Source: an uncultured virus (IMG/VR IMGVR_UViG_3300042939_000937)
Lineage: Duplodnaviria; Heunggongvirae; Uroviricota; Caudoviricetes
Length of the DNA stretch: 64,000 nucleotides
IMG/VR virus record: IMGVR_UViG_3300042939_000937
Reading direction: 5' to 3' (one strand)
Below the pieces are notes generated by a model, which worked only from the letters and a program-made list of their open reading frames with translations, was not told where the DNA came from and made no database searches. Within the stretch, counting starts at the first letter, position 1, and the number at the start of each line of letters is the position of its first letter. The position numbers and the translations under genes are program-made. Positions 25 to 25,142 of this stretch are shown in pieces.

Positions 25-388
25 ATCGGGCAGCAGCCCAGGCGAGACCAAGGAATCGAACCTCGAATTATTCACCAGATCCTCGCAGTGACCCCCAGAT
101 TTGTGCATCGTTGAGAGGCATAGGGGGCTAGGGGGCTCCGGTAGTGACCCCGGAGCTGCCTGTCACTAGGCTGCCCGATGCTATGCCCGGACATTTCCGG
201 ACCACGCAGAGCGGGAACGAGGCAGGTGTCTCTACGCTGTACGTTCCCTACGTGTCACCAGCTCTGTCGTACGTTCCCTACGTGTCACCAACAGTTCAAC
301 TCCTTTTACTTTCCTTACCTCAGGCCCATGTACGTCTCCCCGGTTGGCCACTTCTGGGAAACGCCCCACCCTCGAATGTGATGGGGAA
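25..388 (-). ncRNA. Putative large structured ncRNA downstream of the tRNA pair; may extend past the window start
   Basis: No credible ORF. 10-bp long-range stem (170-179 with 25-34), several hairpins, complementary loops, a tRNA-type T-arm (CGAGG TTCGATT CCTTG) and a 22-bp direct repeat. Confidence 0.55.
239..290. repeat. 22-bp direct repeat GTACGTTCCCTACGTGTCACCA x2
   Basis: Exact copies at 239-260 and 269-290. Confidence 0.9.
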
Positions 389-4564: not shown

Positions 4565-4663
4565 TCAAACAATGCCTTTCGGTGTGTTTGAAGCGTATTG
4601 CTTCTCAATACGGGCGTTCGCTTTCATTTTGGCAAACAGCCAGGTTAGGAATGCGGGTTTCAT
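4565..4663 (-). CDS. 32-aa peptide MKPAFLTWLFAKMKANARIEKQYASNTPKGIV
   Basis: ATGA overlap with the upstream peptide; ends before the terminator; below the ORF-track cutoff. Confidence 0.5.
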   Translation of the reverse strand: MKPAFLTWLFAKMKANARIEKQYASNTPKGIV

Positions 4664-4791
4664 TTGCGCACCTCCACCACCTCAGTGTGCCGAGTGCCAC
4701 GATAGGTTTCGGCGACAATGTGTTTTTCAGTGGGTGCGCTCTTGCGAGCATCGGTGTCATAACGGACACCACGATAAGTAGCGATTGACAT
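4660..4791 (-). CDS. DUF4278-like peptide (43 aa, MSIATYRGVRYDTD...ETYRGTRH)
   Basis: Duplicated TYRG motif; GGAG Shine-Dalgarno; follows a glutamine riboswitch. Confidence 0.75.
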   Translation of the reverse strand: MSIATYRGVRYDTDARKSAPTEKHIVAETYRGTRHTEVVEVRK

Positions 4792-4816
4792 TGCAGTCTC
4801 CAGTGGGATGAGCAAT

Positions 4817-4866
4817 GCGTTCCTTCGGCGTGAGCCTACTTCCGTCCTGCTTCGCAGGATGAACGG
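4817..4866 (-). promoter_or_regulatory. Glutamine riboswitch (glnA motif, class I)
   Basis: CGTTCATCCTGCGAAGCAGGACGGAAGTAGGCTCACGCCGAAGGAACGC matches the CGUU..P2..CGGAAGUA..P3..GAAGGAACG consensus. Confidence 0.85.
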
Positions 4867-5188
4867 TAGTTATTGTTACCCTTTGCCGTCAGAGTAATAC
4901 GATAAGTAAGGGGATGGCAAGGGTGGAGAGCCCGATGACTGTTCCTAGAAGGAAATCAATCACGGGCCTCAGACTGTGTTCGGGCATTTTGACGAAGAGA
5001 AATCTCGCGCTTGTTGACTTTGCTTGAAGCGGTGGAGAATACCACCACCACCGATGCCAGGCCAGCGAGGCCAATCACAGCGAGGGCGAGGTCGGATGCG
5101 GAGAAGTTGGACCAGGTTTCCATGAGTGGTTTGTTTTGACTGAGTTTAGTATAGCGCGGGCTGCGCCCGCAGTAAAAGACGGTTTACA

Positions 5189-5917: not shown

Positions 5918-6997
5918 TCAACCGATTGCCGGAGCAGTCAGGGCGACAGGTGTGGAACTGGCTGCTGCCAGGTCAAGGGGGAAATTGTGTGCGTTCCGTT
6001 CGTGTTGAACTTCAATTCCCAGGTTGGCCCGGTTAAGGATGTCTGCCCAAGTAGGAATAACATTCCCTTGGTGGTCGAGGATTGATTGATTGAAGTTCAG
6101 CCCATTTAAGTTAACTGAGGACAATGCAATACCCATTGAAGCGCACCAAATGCCAATCACAGGGAATGCAGCGAGAAGGAAGTGCAGGCTGCGGCTGTTG
6201 TTGAAGGAGGCATACTGGAACAGGAGACGACCGAAATAGGCATGTGCTGCCACAATATTGTACGTCTCTTCCTCTTGTCCAAACTTGTACCCGTTGTTGT
6301 GAGACTCGGTTTCAGTTGTCTCTCGAATCAAGGAGCTGGTCACCAAACTCCCGTGCATGGCACTAAACAACGCACCACCAAAAACACCAGCAACTCCCAG
6401 CATATGCAGAGGATTCATTAGGATGTTATGTTCAGCGGTAAAGACAATCATATAGTTGAAAGTTCCGCTAATACCTAAAGGCATCGCATCACTAAAACTA
6501 CCCTGCCCCGAAGGATAAATCATGAACACGGCAAACGCAGCGGACACTGGAGCCATATAGGCCACAAAAATCCACGGGCGCATACCTAGATAATATGAGA
6601 GCTCCCACTGACGACCGGCATAGCAAGTGATGCCGATAAGGAAGTGGAAGACGATCAATTGAAAAGGTCCACCATTGTAGAGGAACTCATCAAGACTCGC
6701 AGCTTCCCAGATGGGATAAAAGTGCAGGCCAATCGCATTGGAACTAGGCACAACAGCAGCAGAGATGATGTTGTTGCCGTAAAGGAATGAACCAGCCACC
6801 GGCTCACGAATTCCGTCGATATCGACAGGAGGTGCGGCAATAATTGCCAGAACAAAAACGATAGCGGCAACTGACAAACATGGGATCATCAAAACCCCGA
6901 AGTTGCCAATAAAAATACGGTTGTCAGTAGAGGTTACCCAACCATTGAAACGTGCCCAGAGATTTTCAGATGGGCGTTGTAAAACAGAAGAAGCCAT
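5918..6997 (-). CDS. psbA: Photosystem II D1 protein, divergent
   Basis: [46 protein letters not shown]. Confidence 0.99.
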
Positions 6998-10914: not shown

Positions 10915-12177
10915 TTAAGATCCCTCATAGAGAATGTTTGTGAGCTTTAGAGCATCGGCATCAGTCATTTTCGACCACGGGCCTTTTTCGTACGTGTCGA
11001 GTTTATTCTTGATTCCGGTGATGGCGACTGTTTTAATCTCGTCATCGCTATACCCCATTTTTTTCATCTCTGAGAATACTTTGGGGAGATTCTGAGAGTA
11101 AATTCGATGGAGATAAGGAGCTTCTTGAAGCAGTTTCGCGCCCGCTTTTGAATTCAACCCCATGTTCTCAGCATCCTGCAACCTGAACCCTGCAGTTCCA
11201 TTCCACTGCCTCACCTGCCAGTCCCCTTTTTGTTTACCTACCCCGGGAATGGCCGTTCCTGCAGACGGTGCCTTGAACGCTCCAAGAGCTTCGGATAGAG
11301 CAGCTTTCGGGGAATCCTGCGCAAACCCCAGGTCAATAACTGTTCCCTTCCCTTTATTGTCTACGAGAACATTATCCGAGTGCATATCATTGTGCGCGAT
11401 TCCCGTTTTGTGCAGCGCAGCTCTCGCTTTCCAGAAAGAATCGGCAGCGGTCACCCCATTTAAAGTTTGGCCAGCAACTTGCTCCGCTGGTTTTCCTTCG
11501 ACTTTAGTCATCGCAATTCTACCATCGTGCATCTGAACCGGAGCGCTGGTTTTGATGCCATTTTTCGGCCCAATTTCCGCTGCGATGAGTTTGGCAGAGA
11601 CTCCGGCATCCCCTGCTTTCTTAATGATGGCTGCTTCAGTGTCTGAGATAATACCTCGCTTCACCACGGTGCCATCTGGGTTCATAAGTACTGTACCAAA
11701 CGCTCCTTGGCCTAGTTTCTTTGTTTGAGGGTCATAGGAGTCACCCCACTTATTGAAATTGACATCACCCTCTTTACGAGCTGACGTACTGTCGAAATTC
11801 TTGTCGAACCCGTAGGCACTCTGAACATAGTAAGGAGAATTTGCGGCGGGTTTTACGTTCGGTGCCGGTTTAGGTTGAGTGGGTGCAGGAGCCGGAGCTG
11901 AGGTTGGCACCGGAGCCGGTGCAACCTTCGGTTGCGCGGCGGGAGTCGACACGCTTTGACCTGCCTTCTTCTTCTGGACCACCTGAGCAACTTTGGTCAA
12001 AGACGGCCCTGCCCAAGGTAAATCCACAAGGCAGACCATATTCGCTGCGATACACGCTGCTGAACAGTTCTTGCCCTTAGTACACCGTTTGCGCTTGCCT
12101 CCTACCGCATTCCGTTTTGCTGCGGCAATGCGACTTTCTTTGGGGTATAGGCCCATGGCAAAGTCGAGGATGCTCAT
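10915..12177 (-). CDS. Leader + linker + C-terminal protein kinase-like domain
   Basis: Shared 4-Cys leader; LGQGAFGTV, VVK, HNDMHSDN, IDLG. Confidence 0.87.
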   Translation of the reverse strand: MSILDFAMGLYPKESRIAAAKRNAVGGKRKRCTKGKNCSAACIAANMVCLVDLPWAGPSLTKVAQVVQKKKAGQSVSTPAAQPKVAPAPVPTSAPAPAPTQPKPAPNVKPAANSPYYVQSAYGFDKNFDSTSARKEGDVNFNKWGDSYDPQTKKLGQGAFGTVLMNPDGTVVKRGIISDTEAAIIKKAGDAGVSAKLIAAEIGPKNGIKTSAPVQMHDGRIAMTKVEGKPAEQVAGQTLNGVTAADSFWKARAALHKTGIAHNDMHSDNVLVDNKGKGTVIDLGFAQDSPKAALSEALGAFKAPSAGTAIPGVGKQKGDWQVRQWNGTAGFRLQDAENMGLNSKAGAKLLQEAPYLHRIYSQNLPKVFSEMKKMGYSDDEIKTVAITGIKNKLDTYEKGPWSKMTDADALKLTNILYEGS

Positions 12178-16144: not shown

Positions 16145-16351
16145 CTATTCGCTTTTACCCTCAAGTTTATCCACATAGTCCCTCAGCTCTGTCAGCTGGT
16201 GAGCCAGTTTTGTCATGATTGAGAGAGCTTCGGTCAGAAACTCTTCGAGTTCATCGCGAGACAATTCGTGGAGTCTCCTTCGAATCGACATTACGCGAAA
16301 CTCTTTCTCAATCGGCAACGGGCTCATCTGAAAAGGGTTCGGTTGTTCCAT
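16145..16351 (-). CDS. nblA: NblA-like phycobilisome degradation protein
   Basis: LPIEKEFRV...LHELSRDELEEFL...M fits the NblA LxLEQxF...MSxEQ...L pattern. Confidence 0.55.
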   Translation of the reverse strand: MEQPNPFQMSPLPIEKEFRVMSIRRRLHELSRDELEEFLTEALSIMTKLAHQLTELRDYVDKLEGKSE

Positions 16352-17036
16352 ACGCCACACCTCGGAGTTCAAAAAACTTTTCTGCTGCCCATTCATTCTC
16401 CTCTTCACTCACGTTTGCCCCTTCGACGTATTTCATGAGCATCGTCATTTCTGCGTCACTCAGGGAACGTATCTGGGCGATTAGCTCAGGGGAGAGCAAA
16501 GTTGCTTTATGCTCATCGAAGCTGTAAACAAACTCCGGAGTACACCAATCCTCTGGGGAACTGTCGTAAGAAACATGGTAGTTGTTTGAGGACAACTCGC
16601 AGTACATGACCTTGGTTTCGTCAAGGCCAAGAGCCTCTGCGACTTCTGAATAAGACAGGCCTTCTTTGACTAAATCTGAAACCTGGTTCTTGTAGTTTGC
16701 AATCCAACGGGGAGTTCTCACCATTCGAGAATAATCCCGAAGAGCATGCTGTATGTAACCACGTGCCGTATTCCAGGCATAGGTGCTATACTTCACATTC
16801 ATCTCAGGTTTGTACCTGGTTGCTGCAACACAGAGGGCAAAGTTTGCGATTGATTCCAAGTCTTCTCGAGTCAACGACCCTGTGTGCCCTCCCGTCAAAC
16901 ATTTTGCCCCATACGCCAATCTGCCCGAGATCCACTTATGCTCAGCAACGAGTGCTTGTTGTTCCGGAGTGAGGCTCGGGTATTTTTTATAGCGGCGACG
17001 TGACATTTTAGGCTTCGCAGGAGAGACAGTCGGCAT
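16308..17036 (-). CDS. Sigma-70-family RNA polymerase sigma factor
   Basis: EDL...AL..AATRYKP...KYSTYAW...GYIQHALRDYSRMVRTPRW; HTH SYSEVAEALG. Confidence 0.85.
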   Translation of the reverse strand: MPTVSPAKPKMSRRRYKKYPSLTPEQQALVAEHKWISGRLAYGAKCLTGGHTGSLTREDLESIANFALCVAATRYKPEMNVKYSTYAWNTARGYIQHALRDYSRMVRTPRWIANYKNQVSDLVKEGLSYSEVAEALGLDETKVMYCELSSNNYHVSYDSSPEDWCTPEFVYSFDEHKATLLSPELIAQIRSLSDAEMTMLMKYVEGANVSEEENEWAAEKFFELRGVAYGTTEPFSDEPVAD

Positions 17037-22335: not shown

Positions 22336-22686
22336 TTATTCAGGTGTGTCTTCAAGGATTTCCTTGATTTTGTCGCGCAACTCGACGATAGTCGCTGCCC
22401 CTTGCTGGTGGCCTAGATACTTGCCAGTCTTGGCAAGGAATAAGTACACAGGAAGGTCGATAGAGTAGTCAGGGTTTAGGCAATGCTTCTCCAAGCACTG
22501 GTAAATGCGTAGTTTTGTAAGGTTGTTGTTGTGATTGATAACATCATCGAGCTTCACTTCCTGATAAGAAAGTTCGTCGAAACCTTCGAAAGTTACTCGA
22601 TCATGCTTGCTCATGTGGCGGCACAGGTCACAGTCGTCGTCAAAAACTTTCGTGACAATAATGCTTTTACCCTCGTTGGCACTCAT
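22336..22686 (-). CDS. Thioredoxin-fold protein
   Basis: CDLC plus a later LPVYLF (cis-Pro-like). Confidence 0.6.
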   Translation of the reverse strand: MSANEGKSIIVTKVFDDDCDLCRHMSKHDRVTFEGFDELSYQEVKLDDVINHNNNLTKLRIYQCLEKHCLNPDYSIDLPVYLFLAKTGKYLGHQQGAATIVELRDKIKEILEDTPE

Positions 22687-23273
22687 TTGACCAGTTCCTC
22701 CAGTTCAGGATGCTTTTCACGCACGATCTTTGTGAATCGCGCAATATGCGAGTTAACCGCTTGCTTACTCATTCCGTACTTCGCAGCGACCTCGCCTTGG
22801 CGCATTGCTGGACGCCCGAGCAGACCGTAGCGATCGCACACGATTTGTGCCCGCTTGCTGTTAAGCGAACCGCAACCGTCTTCAATCAGCTTTTGAATCA
22901 TTCCGGAAGCATACTCGTCCTTCACCTCGTACTGCACCGTATCCTCGAGGTTATTTCCCCAGTCACTCTGCTCAAGCGACAAAGGGAACTTTGGCATGCG
23001 GTTGTCTTTACGGGCGACACTTTGCACCGCACCTCGGACTTGAGGGTACACCCAAGTCATCGGCACAACTTTACGATTGATGTCAAAAGTTTCGATGGCT
23101 TTCACAACACCCATCAAACCTTCTTGCACCAGATCCTCACGGCTGTGGGAAGGGGACATCCAGGCGTAACGGTTCACGATTTTGTGGACCAGGGGAGTAT
23201 ACTGTTGGACCACCGCAGTGATCGCCTTGGCATCGCCCTTGACAGCGTCGAGAAAAAGGGAGTGGTTAGTCAT
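22683..23273 (-). CDS. Second sigma-70-family sigma factor
   Basis: EDLVQEGLMGVVKAIETFD; region-4 RYGL...QGEVAAKYGMSKQAV. Confidence 0.87.
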   Translation of the reverse strand: MTNHSLFLDAVKGDAKAITAVVQQYTPLVHKIVNRYAWMSPSHSREDLVQEGLMGVVKAIETFDINRKVVPMTWVYPQVRGAVQSVARKDNRMPKFPLSLEQSDWGNNLEDTVQYEVKDEYASGMIQKLIEDGCGSLNSKRAQIVCDRYGLLGRPAMRQGEVAAKYGMSKQAVNSHIARFTKIVREKHPELEELVK

Positions 23274-24244: not shown

Positions 24245-24580
24245 TCAGCGATTATCGCCGGAGCCGGAGAGAACGCCACGTTGCTGGCGAGAAGCAAGTT
24301 TGTCAAGGTTCATTTGCATAATCTCCTCGAGGGTGTAGTCAAGTTCGTAAGCGAGTACCGCAACGTACCAACATACATCAGATAGTTCGAGAGCGATTTT
24401 TTCTCGGTCAGGGTCGGTAAGGGTCCCATCTCCATCCCGGATAATTTTCTTCGCTTTCTCTGCAACTTCTCCAGCTTCACCTACAAGACCAAGTGTAGGG
24501 TAGATAAAATTCTGCCCTTGGTTCGGGTAGATTGCTGTTTGCAGCGCAGCGGTTTGGTAGTCGTTTGCGGTGAGTGTCAT
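24245..24580 (-). CDS. mazG: MazG-like nucleotide pyrophosphohydrolase
   Basis: LGLVGEAGEVAEKAKK...ELSDVCWY...GSGDNR; promoter at 24602-24629 supports this start. Confidence 0.9.
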   Translation of the reverse strand: MTLTANDYQTAALQTAIYPNQGQNFIYPTLGLVGEAGEVAEKAKKIIRDGDGTLTDPDREKIALELSDVCWYVAVLAYELDYTLEEIMQMNLDKLASRQQRGVLSGSGDNR

Positions 24581-24629
24581 TGTGCATGAGTAGACAGTTC
24601 CAGTATAGCGCGGGGGGCTTCCGAGTAAA

Positions 24630-25142
24630 TCAGAACCCGACATCAACCTCTTTGGCGTGACCCCGTTCGACCAGGTCGTCCCACAACATGGAGGCAGCGC
24701 CAATCGTGAATCGGATGCTTCCGGGGACTTTGCCTGCGAATGAGGATACCTCACGCAACAGACACTGGAAGAAGATAACCTCGACTGCAAACTCCTCGAC
24801 GACGAGCGTAGGAATAAAAACCATCGCGGACATCTCGTGCCCTTCGACGATGAAATAGACAGTGTTCGGTTCTCGACCACGCAAGAACGAGATTGGGTAG
24901 ACGATTTCGTCGATATTCCGCCGAGTTTCAACAAGCAGGTGGTTCCAGTCGTTCTCATCCTTGCGGAATGTTTGATGAACTTCGCTCTGTATGCGATCGA
25001 GAGAAACCGGATAGTTGTAATCCTCGAGAGAATCTGCCAGGACGTTGACCCCTGTAAGGTAAACACCGAGAAGTTCTGATTTTCCTTTCTTGGTTACGAG
25101 ACCCGACAGAAAAGACGCAGGATCAGTTAGTTTTGCGGTCAT
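24630..25142 (-). CDS. Hypothetical protein
   Basis: ORF in array. Confidence 0.65.
   Translation of the reverse strand: MTAKLTDPASFLSGLVTKKGKSELLGVYLTGVNVLADSLEDYNYPVSLDRIQSEVHQTFRKDENDWNHLLVETRRNIDEIVYPISFLRGREPNTVYFIVEGHEMSAMVFIPTLVVEEFAVEVIFFQCLLREVSSFAGKVPGSIRFTIGAASMLWDDLVERGHAKEVDVGF

Follow-up and report, generated by a model that had tools for sequence, protein, structure and literature searches.

A chain of exchangeable RNA modules in a cyanophage tRNA operon, with an abiF motif and a PemK/MazF-linked hairpin as possible antitoxin mimics

What kind of RNA lies behind the two tRNA genes at one end of IMGVR_UViG_3300042939_000937, an uncultured Caudoviricetes virus in IMG/VR? We analyzed a 64,000-nucleotide stretch of this virus, hereafter called the window, with emphasis on positions 25-388, which are read from the minus strand. 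Judged by its sequence, the window is part of a tailed freshwater (lake) cyanophage: it carries psbA at 5918-6997, 79% identical to Synechococcus phage D1, and an NrdA that is nearest to those of S-TIM5 (66%) and S-CBWM1. The promoter candidate ahead of the tRNA pair is weak, with one such site found against 0.4 expected (Table 1). A preliminary description of the stretch had proposed a single, undescribed 360-nt RNA of the GOLLD/ROOL class, closed by a helix between 25-34 and 170-179 and containing kissing loops. We confirm structured non-coding RNA behind tRNAs, and find its architecture more ordinary than that description thought and its content more interesting.

All of the sequence elements named in the preliminary description were found where it had placed them, on the minus strand. 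The arms 179-170 and 34-25 pair perfectly over 10 bp, the adjacent hairpins 171-158 and 156-135 have loops that are complementary over 7 nt, and GGGGTCACT occurs twice, at 151-143 and 95-87. The stem of 237-230 with 211-204 contains eight pairs, two of them G.U, and two identical 22-nt repeats lie at 290-269 and 260-239. Chance levels were obtained from 2000 dinucleotide shuffles of 25-388. Only the 22-nt direct repeat was clearly beyond chance (0/2000); a perfect 10-bp inverted repeat arose in 99 shuffles (5%), an 8-bp one in 1159, a 7-bp one in 1916 and a 9-nt direct repeat in 373. The fold of the whole stretch was no better than that of its shuffles (z -1.06, 14/100 as good), and the region 20-185 alone gave a z of -2.33 (4/200 as good).

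Table 1. Features of the array and its tRNA operon (window coordinates).
Feature	Position	Strand	Description
sigma-70-like promoter candidate	573-601	minus	upstream of the tRNA pair; 9/12 matches; weak
tRNA-Leu(TAG)	478-561	minus	ARAGORN/Rfam; upstream of the array
tRNA-Asn(GTT)	389-460	minus	3' end is the start of the module string
5' hairpin region	322-388	minus	predicted fold; motif otherwise only in the identical copy L139
module E	219-321	minus	conserved flanks 321-300 and 228-219 around variable cargo
cargo R	236-294	minus	two tandem hairpins with the 22-nt repeat
module A	173-218	minus	first hairpin (H1) of an unnamed PemK/MazF-linked RNA
module B	183-204	minus	hairpin carried within module A's apical loop
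module C	135-171	minus	neighboring hairpins whose loops are complementary and may kiss
abiF RNA motif	91-127	minus	Rfam RF03085; followed by a 4-nt tail (87-90) to the predicted RNase P cut 87/86
mini-tRNA, 46 nt	41-86	minus	6-bp acceptor stem plus A.G, 14-nt linker, T arm, discriminator C
3' arm of the proposed closing helix	25-34	minus	opens further modules running off the window, as seen in L139

Related loci were gathered by pattern scans of viral contigs, and the order of modules was mapped in 18 of them. The same short modules stand in differing orders between tRNAs, and tRNA-Asn precedes the array in most of the relatives mapped. Locus L127 has modules E, R, A and C in common with the window, without insert B, and after the C run that it shares with the window it carries another module in place of abiF. 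L043 contains E with other cargo, followed by A and B, L123 is limited to A, C and one third module, and module B is found free-standing after tRNA-Asn in other cyanophages. Both flanks of module E were present in 12 loci with different cargo, with one further locus truncated; by eye the flanks pair, a pairing that ViennaRNA does not favor. In L317/L319 the closing stems of cargo R are altered on one side or on both (by eye), and the exact 22-nt repeat was found only in L127 and L139 among 311 loci. The loops of module C are identical in all copies and thus offer no covariation. We are highly confident that 25-388 is a chain of short exchangeable modules and not one folded RNA.

A single large RNA is, in our assessment, very unlikely. 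The helix 25-34/170-179 is in the minimum-energy fold with pair probabilities of 0.4-0.47, the repeat-to-loop complementarity retains six of seven pairs in L317/L319, and the helix may serve as a genome-specific switch. However, among the 18 mapped loci its 3' arm occurs only in the window and in L139, which is identical to the window over 1-390; L127 matches window 321-130 almost exactly and yet lacks the arm. Because the 3' arm is private to this genome among the loci mapped and the GCGTAGAG strand is absent from most loci with module A, the claim of one large closed RNA is not confirmed. The helix would also break module A, whose fold survives changed pairs in L164 and L165, where the lower stem of H1 is swapped and the internal loop kept (by eye). 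Unlike GOLLD, ROOL and manA, the stretch has no one conserved fold, and its module order varies. Rfam searches over 1-640 with E up to 10 returned no GOLLD, ROOL, manA, tmRNA or YrlA (RF02553) match, ARAGORN found no tmRNA at the locus, and no TROVE (Ro60) family was present among the 50 ORFs scanned from this incomplete genome. A divergent manA, considered on the basis of words shared by eye, was dropped on the same Rfam result; manA was present in the control locus L001 at 96.6 bits.

The array continues beyond the window. L139 extends leftward, where the preliminary description had advised looking, and there contains more modules, a second abiF-like scaffold and tRNA-Met. This second scaffold (L139:1220-1265, left of window position 1) has a swapped apical loop and lies directly before tRNA-Met. 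It resembles a hairpin upstream of the Abi gene of PCC 7002, and similar loop-swapped copies occur in L063, L068 and L144. At the other end of the array, region 322-388 had no homologue among the loci compared, the identical copy L139 aside. When 1-400 was compared by BLAST with named phages and plasmids, the matches were abiF and some short chance ones, and nothing else. The array DNA was also searched against 401 genomes around each of G004, G003 and G413, the G413 listing being that of G004's genomes, and gave three weak matches in all, which we judged to be chance. These genome searches missed a known copy of module A in their own centre genomes and therefore say little about modules B, C, E and R, for which searches of this demonstrated insensitivity matched no bacterial locus. 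No partner gene was found for module C.

Other elements were observed in such arrays. L127, L015, L043, L123 and L014 carry a further module, always just 5' of tRNA-Pro or of a tRNA-like element, whose abiF-like stem and internal loop suggest a possible variant of the AbiF family that Rfam does not detect. Module E with short cargo lies directly before tRNA-Leu in a phage that is AT-rich and apparently unrelated (L316:601-675). The arrays of L006 (785-874) and L052 (789-879) contain an unusual but conserved tRNA-like RNA, which has two arms resembling T-loops, and a permuted tmRNA follows the array in L063 and L068.

The preliminary description had recognized no family in the stretch, and had named an Infernal search of Rfam as one check. 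This claim fails, since positions 91-127 match abiF (RF03085) with 53.7 bits, where the gathering score is 37, and cover model positions 1-37 of 37; searched across the entire window, the match has an E value of 3.4e-7. The motif is thus a full-length member of the group that includes the abiF antitoxins AbiFr and RCd22. According to the accessible portion of 10.1101/2025.04.15.648962, abiF-motif RNA is the antitoxin of the HEPN nuclease AbiF, which it neutralizes in trans by direct binding; in C. difficile the antitoxin has two abiF motifs in one RNA, and the motifs also act in cis on termination. A review (PMC12737573) likewise treats abiF-motif RNAs as AbiF-binding antitoxins. A lone abiF has been annotated between the tRNAs of cyanophage S-CREM1, where it precedes tRNA-Gly, and called 'likely functional', and the accessible text proposes no mechanism (PMC9964418).

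To place the motif in context, viral contigs were scanned with the window's own 20-nt abiF core, which yielded at least 120 loci, 101 of them distinct among the matches listed. Among these 101 listed contexts, a tRNA starts within 25 nt of the motif in 62, a T-loop is found within 130 nt in 13, one is truncated and 25 have neither. The gap between abiF and tRNA is 12-17 nt in 59 of the 62 listed cases, with a mode of 13, and the mini-tRNA of the window also stands at 13. A tRNA ending just upstream of abiF was found in 9/101 listed contexts. The following tRNA is tRNA-Arg in 39/62, and at least 11 tRNA types are represented in the matches listed. At L004:735-928 and similar loci, a group I intron interrupts the tRNA behind abiF.

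The toxin gene is nearly always missing from these loci. Abi_2 was sought in 126 frames of at least 150 codons from 73 distinct loci with 1200-nt flanks, the other 28 contexts being short-flanked and left out, and among these listed matches was found in a single locus, one without a tRNA link. It was absent from all five abiF-bearing phage records searched (three complete genomes and two viral records), and from the window and L139 (tblastn; Pfam on 50 ORFs), which represent an incomplete phage genome. In cyanobacteria, host occurrence of abiF-like RNA comes from one plasmid, PCC 7002 pAQ3, in which an Abi-family gene has two abiF-like hairpins upstream; these score 27 and 25 bits, under the gathering score of 37.

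The fixed distance of abiF from tRNAs invites another explanation, namely that the modules serve the tRNA operon as leaders, stabilizing hairpins or processing signals, or are captures of little benefit whose antitoxin likeness reflects their origin. A leader would stand 5' of a tRNA at just such a distance, tRNA-Arg is the usual neighbor, the C. difficile motifs act in cis on termination in the accessible text cited above, and a toxin link is absent for most modules. Against this, the unpaired positions of abiF are held near the bacterial consensus in many phages and before many tRNA types, most phage tRNAs have no such leader, and a mini-tRNA that cannot decode is kept behind abiF. The last point suggests that the module is what benefits from the tRNA shape, rather than the other way round. 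We regard the operon explanation as unlikely, though it has to be taken seriously.

The mini-tRNA, which the preliminary description had noticed as a minimal tRNA-like module, is real: one T-stem position has four different base pairs in four copies. It has no D arm and no anticodon arm. Relatives in L144, L272 and L285 are 46-49 nt long, with six acceptor pairs plus A.G, a 5-bp T stem and discriminator C. T-stem pair 51-63 reads AU, GC, UA and CG, and all four copies have the stacked acceptor and a canonical T loop. The element stands behind abiF in L272 and L285 and behind another module in L144, where it occupies the place in which other phages carry tRNA-Pro. Its position at the usual tRNA slot of abiF, together with the covariation across three relatives, suggests that it is probably a cut-out signal. 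The acceptor-plus-T-arm shape suffices for RNase P. The mini-tRNA has probably been retained so that RNase P cleaves it and thereby fixes where the preceding module ends at its 3' side, much as MALAT1 mascRNA/menRNA and minihelix substrates are cut-down tRNAs placed for RNase P to end an upstream RNA. It differs from mascRNA/menRNA in its bacteriophage context and in lacking the D and anticodon arms, and the window has no RF01684 match. The tRNA remnant looks like a processing handle rather than the active part, with the antitoxin-like modules as the likely decoys; release of the modules by tRNA processing and a decoy role, both raised in the preliminary description, appear plausible.

A different form of counter-defence would use the tRNA shapes themselves, with the array being cut in place of other RNA, baiting anticodon nucleases or other RNases by its tRNA shapes, or binding a phage protein, and not acting as an antitoxin. 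Recurrence of tRNA-like parts in the arrays is consistent with such bait, as is a module A that lacks the other parts of its bacterial parent. On the other hand, the mini-tRNA offers no anticodon loop to cut, and no Abi_2 or PemK gene was found in the window or the phage records searched. We consider this alternative improbable.

Module A led to a second bacterial RNA. A 14-nt scan for the module gave at least 118 loci among the matches listed, 22 of them with its second half and the rest chance; the second half was present in 25 of 127 loci compared. When bacterial genomes were searched with a 26-position pattern, 11 loci were obtained, and a PemK/MazF-like gene (PF02452) adjoins the pattern in eight of them, in seven cases directly upstream on the same strand and in one convergently. 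PF02452 matched with E values of 3e-13 and 4e-11, and PemK_toxin was the only Pfam family returned. The bacterial RNA begins with the equivalent of module A, H1, which is the first of three hairpins and is followed by a terminator. The phage module lacks H2, H3 and the terminator, and has module B inserted in its loop. Across 16 aligned copies of the bacterial RNA 93% of cells were paired, a value reached in 0/500 shuffles, and 10/20 pairs were changed on both sides. H1 is nearly invariant among these copies because it was used to choose them. On alignment A1, RNAalifold predicted H1 and a portion of H3 and no other hairpin.

We assembled a further set starting from the protein, which comprised 30 viral loci and nine of 14 plasmid records. 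An RNA model built from the 16 copies matched 19/20 viral loci outside training and 5/6 plasmids; of the 20, one duplicates a training locus and three are near-identical, and four duplicates were left out. The single viral miss was truncated, and the RNA was upstream in three of the viral loci. In the 64-kb window the sole match of the model was 97-219 (19.5 bits, E 1.2e-4), starting at module A, a match that is partly by construction since the training copies were picked partly with the window's motif. Against 151 genomes, only the known locus matched strongly, with three weak matches lacking a PemK gene. No Rfam family matched the PemK-linked RNA.

The PemK-like protein models well (pLDDT 90) with a fold most like type II MazF, ToxN was not among its listed top structural matches, and neither NCBIfam nor PADLOC has a model for it. 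MazE/PemI families were absent from the 35 upstream ORFs of 40 PemK-like loci, the upstream side being the one covered, and short HTH genes lie just upstream of the PemK-like gene in L162, L166 and L170. No PemK gene was found in the window, in L139 or in the 28 viral loci tested, nor in five partial phage records searched with no positive control. None of the PemK-RNA loci found is cyanobacterial. From the locus layout we infer that the RNA could be the antitoxin of this MazF-like toxin, and we propose the gene and its three-hairpin RNA as a candidate new RNA-antitoxin system. It differs from toxIN, cptIN and tenpIN in having a single three-hairpin RNA, mostly downstream, and no tandem repeats upstream of ToxN, CptN or TenpN. 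In layout it is like the protein-linked, terminator-ended members of the GOLLD, ROOL and DUF3800/drum/skipping-rope set of RNAs, as described in the accessible part of PMC5737381.

In L130:2061-2622, L146:901-1456 and L156-L185, the RNA is 115-145 nt long with three hairpins and a terminator, and stands beside a PemK/MazF-like family of about 140 residues. These loci are spread over Proteobacteria, Planctomycetes, Bacteroidota, plasmids and prophages, and PemK-like genes with the RNA include those of Polaromonas pH8NP1 and Sphingomonas YK209. The third-hairpin loop is often, in some copies and not in others, complementary to the tail behind the terminator, with matching changes (by eye). Copies of the RNA without the gene, in prophage-like or tRNA-adjacent settings, occur twice in L128 (1925-2037 and 2500-2626) and in L137, L138, L030 and L087. 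On a Sphingomonas plasmid the PemK-like gene and RNA are inserted between dnaN and recF (L150:901-1473).

Two modules therefore copy RNAs that bacteria keep beside RNA-cutting toxins, which suggests that the virus may use them to switch defences off. We lean, with modest confidence, towards reading the stretch as a tRNA-processed array of antitoxin mimics that would keep host RNase toxins off during infection. The spacer of a tRNA operon would have turned into a series of small RNA modules that recombination moves from phage to phage. Two or more of these modules, abiF and H1 of the PemK/MazF-linked RNA among them, would be toxin-free copies of toxin-paired RNAs. The transcript would be made by the phage during infection. 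Each tRNA or mini-tRNA would be cut by host RNase P at its 5' end, and nucleases that process 3' ends would cut behind it; these cuts would give abiF a defined 3' end. The released modules would bind host toxins and keep them off; shutdown of host transcription would end the host's own antitoxin supply, for which the phage modules would substitute. Processing, binding and protection are predictions here, as would be any role of modules B, C, E and R.

Several points run contrary to this mimic reading. The energy model prefers rival pairings in this genome over the module folds. Modules A and abiF each fold in isolation, module A with pair probabilities of 0.97-1.0; in the predicted processed piece 388-87, ViennaRNA gives the lower stem of module A a probability of 0 and the abiF stem one of 0.03, and forcing module A costs 6.5 kcal/mol relative to the free fold, which holds the long helix of the preliminary description. 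Of the PemK-linked RNA the window has H1 alone, interrupted by an insert in the loop. The abiF motifs here are single or far apart, unlike the two-motif RNA of C. difficile. Finally, the genome is incomplete, and the phage may encode a partner protein.

RNA-level data cover part of the stretch. Four lake metatranscriptome assemblies contain contigs over window 173-377, apparently from relatives, and as contigs only they give no strand, ends or level; their loose ends show other module orders. Positions 25-172, with module C, abiF and the mini-tRNA, had no contig cover in four RNA runs of 24 listed, which shows neither absence nor expression.

Related phage strategies have been described. Phage phiTE encodes pseudo-ToxI, which reproduces a type III RNA antitoxin without the toxin and has been proposed to act by blocking the toxin of the host; it consists of tandem repeats of one pseudoknot directed at one toxin (PMC3594212). 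The window likewise holds phage-borne copies of defence RNA without the protein, but these would be different RNAs directed towards HEPN and MazF-like folds, with tRNA shapes as likely cut sites. Compared with an AbiF type III locus, the window has no AbiF gene, and its motif is single, lies among unrelated modules and has a tRNA or mini-tRNA behind it rather than a terminator. Racrs, which mimic CRISPR repeats, are also solitary viral RNAs, modeled on the RNA component of a host defence complex (PMC10651486, accessible portion); the putative targets of the array are toxin-antitoxin nucleases and not Cas proteins, and no CRISPR repeat family matched in Rfam. Structured RNAs such as manA and wcaG are known from cyanophage and prophage tRNA clusters, as the accessible text of PMC2864571 describes, and Rfam gave no match to the manA, wcaG, GOLLD, ROOL and DUF3800/drum/skipping-rope set for the window or the PemK-linked RNA. 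In the literature covered, in which subscription papers are thinly represented, no paper was found that treats solitary abiF of phages as a means of counter-defence, describes mimic arrays released by tRNA processing or reports an RNA next to the PemK-like family seen here; priority is not established.

Mimicry of RNA antitoxins and CRISPR repeats is thus known from phiTE and Racrs, in each case with one RNA directed at one system. In the loci described here, abiF without its toxin gene recurs often among the tRNA clusters of phages, the geometry for processing is fixed, and module A adds a MazF-linked RNA. If the mimic reading is true, it would assign a role to stable RNAs from the tRNA regions of phages that have long lacked an explanation, would name a candidate new RNA-antitoxin family, and would make defence-system discovery cheap, as each phage module could be looked up in bacterial genomes. 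We advance, tentatively and as less than an even prospect, the broader conjecture that phage tRNA clusters are multivalent counter-defence arrays, in which each module copies a different host ribonucleoprotein defence RNA, is exchanged between phages where they have short sequences in common, and is released by the host's tRNA machinery, with mini-tRNAs retained as cut sites. Were this so, modules B, C, E and R and others in the relatives would each point to an undiscovered RNA-controlled defence, as module A already may to a MazF-fold toxin under the control of a three-hairpin RNA.

Elsewhere in the window, a glutamine riboswitch lies at 4814-4867, directly upstream of a small ORF (4660-4815). 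The window also contains a DUF218 gene near the tRNA operon (875-1393), a protein-kinase-like gene (10918-12177), two sigma-70-like genes (16311-17036 and 22686-23273) and a MazG-domain gene (24248-25066).
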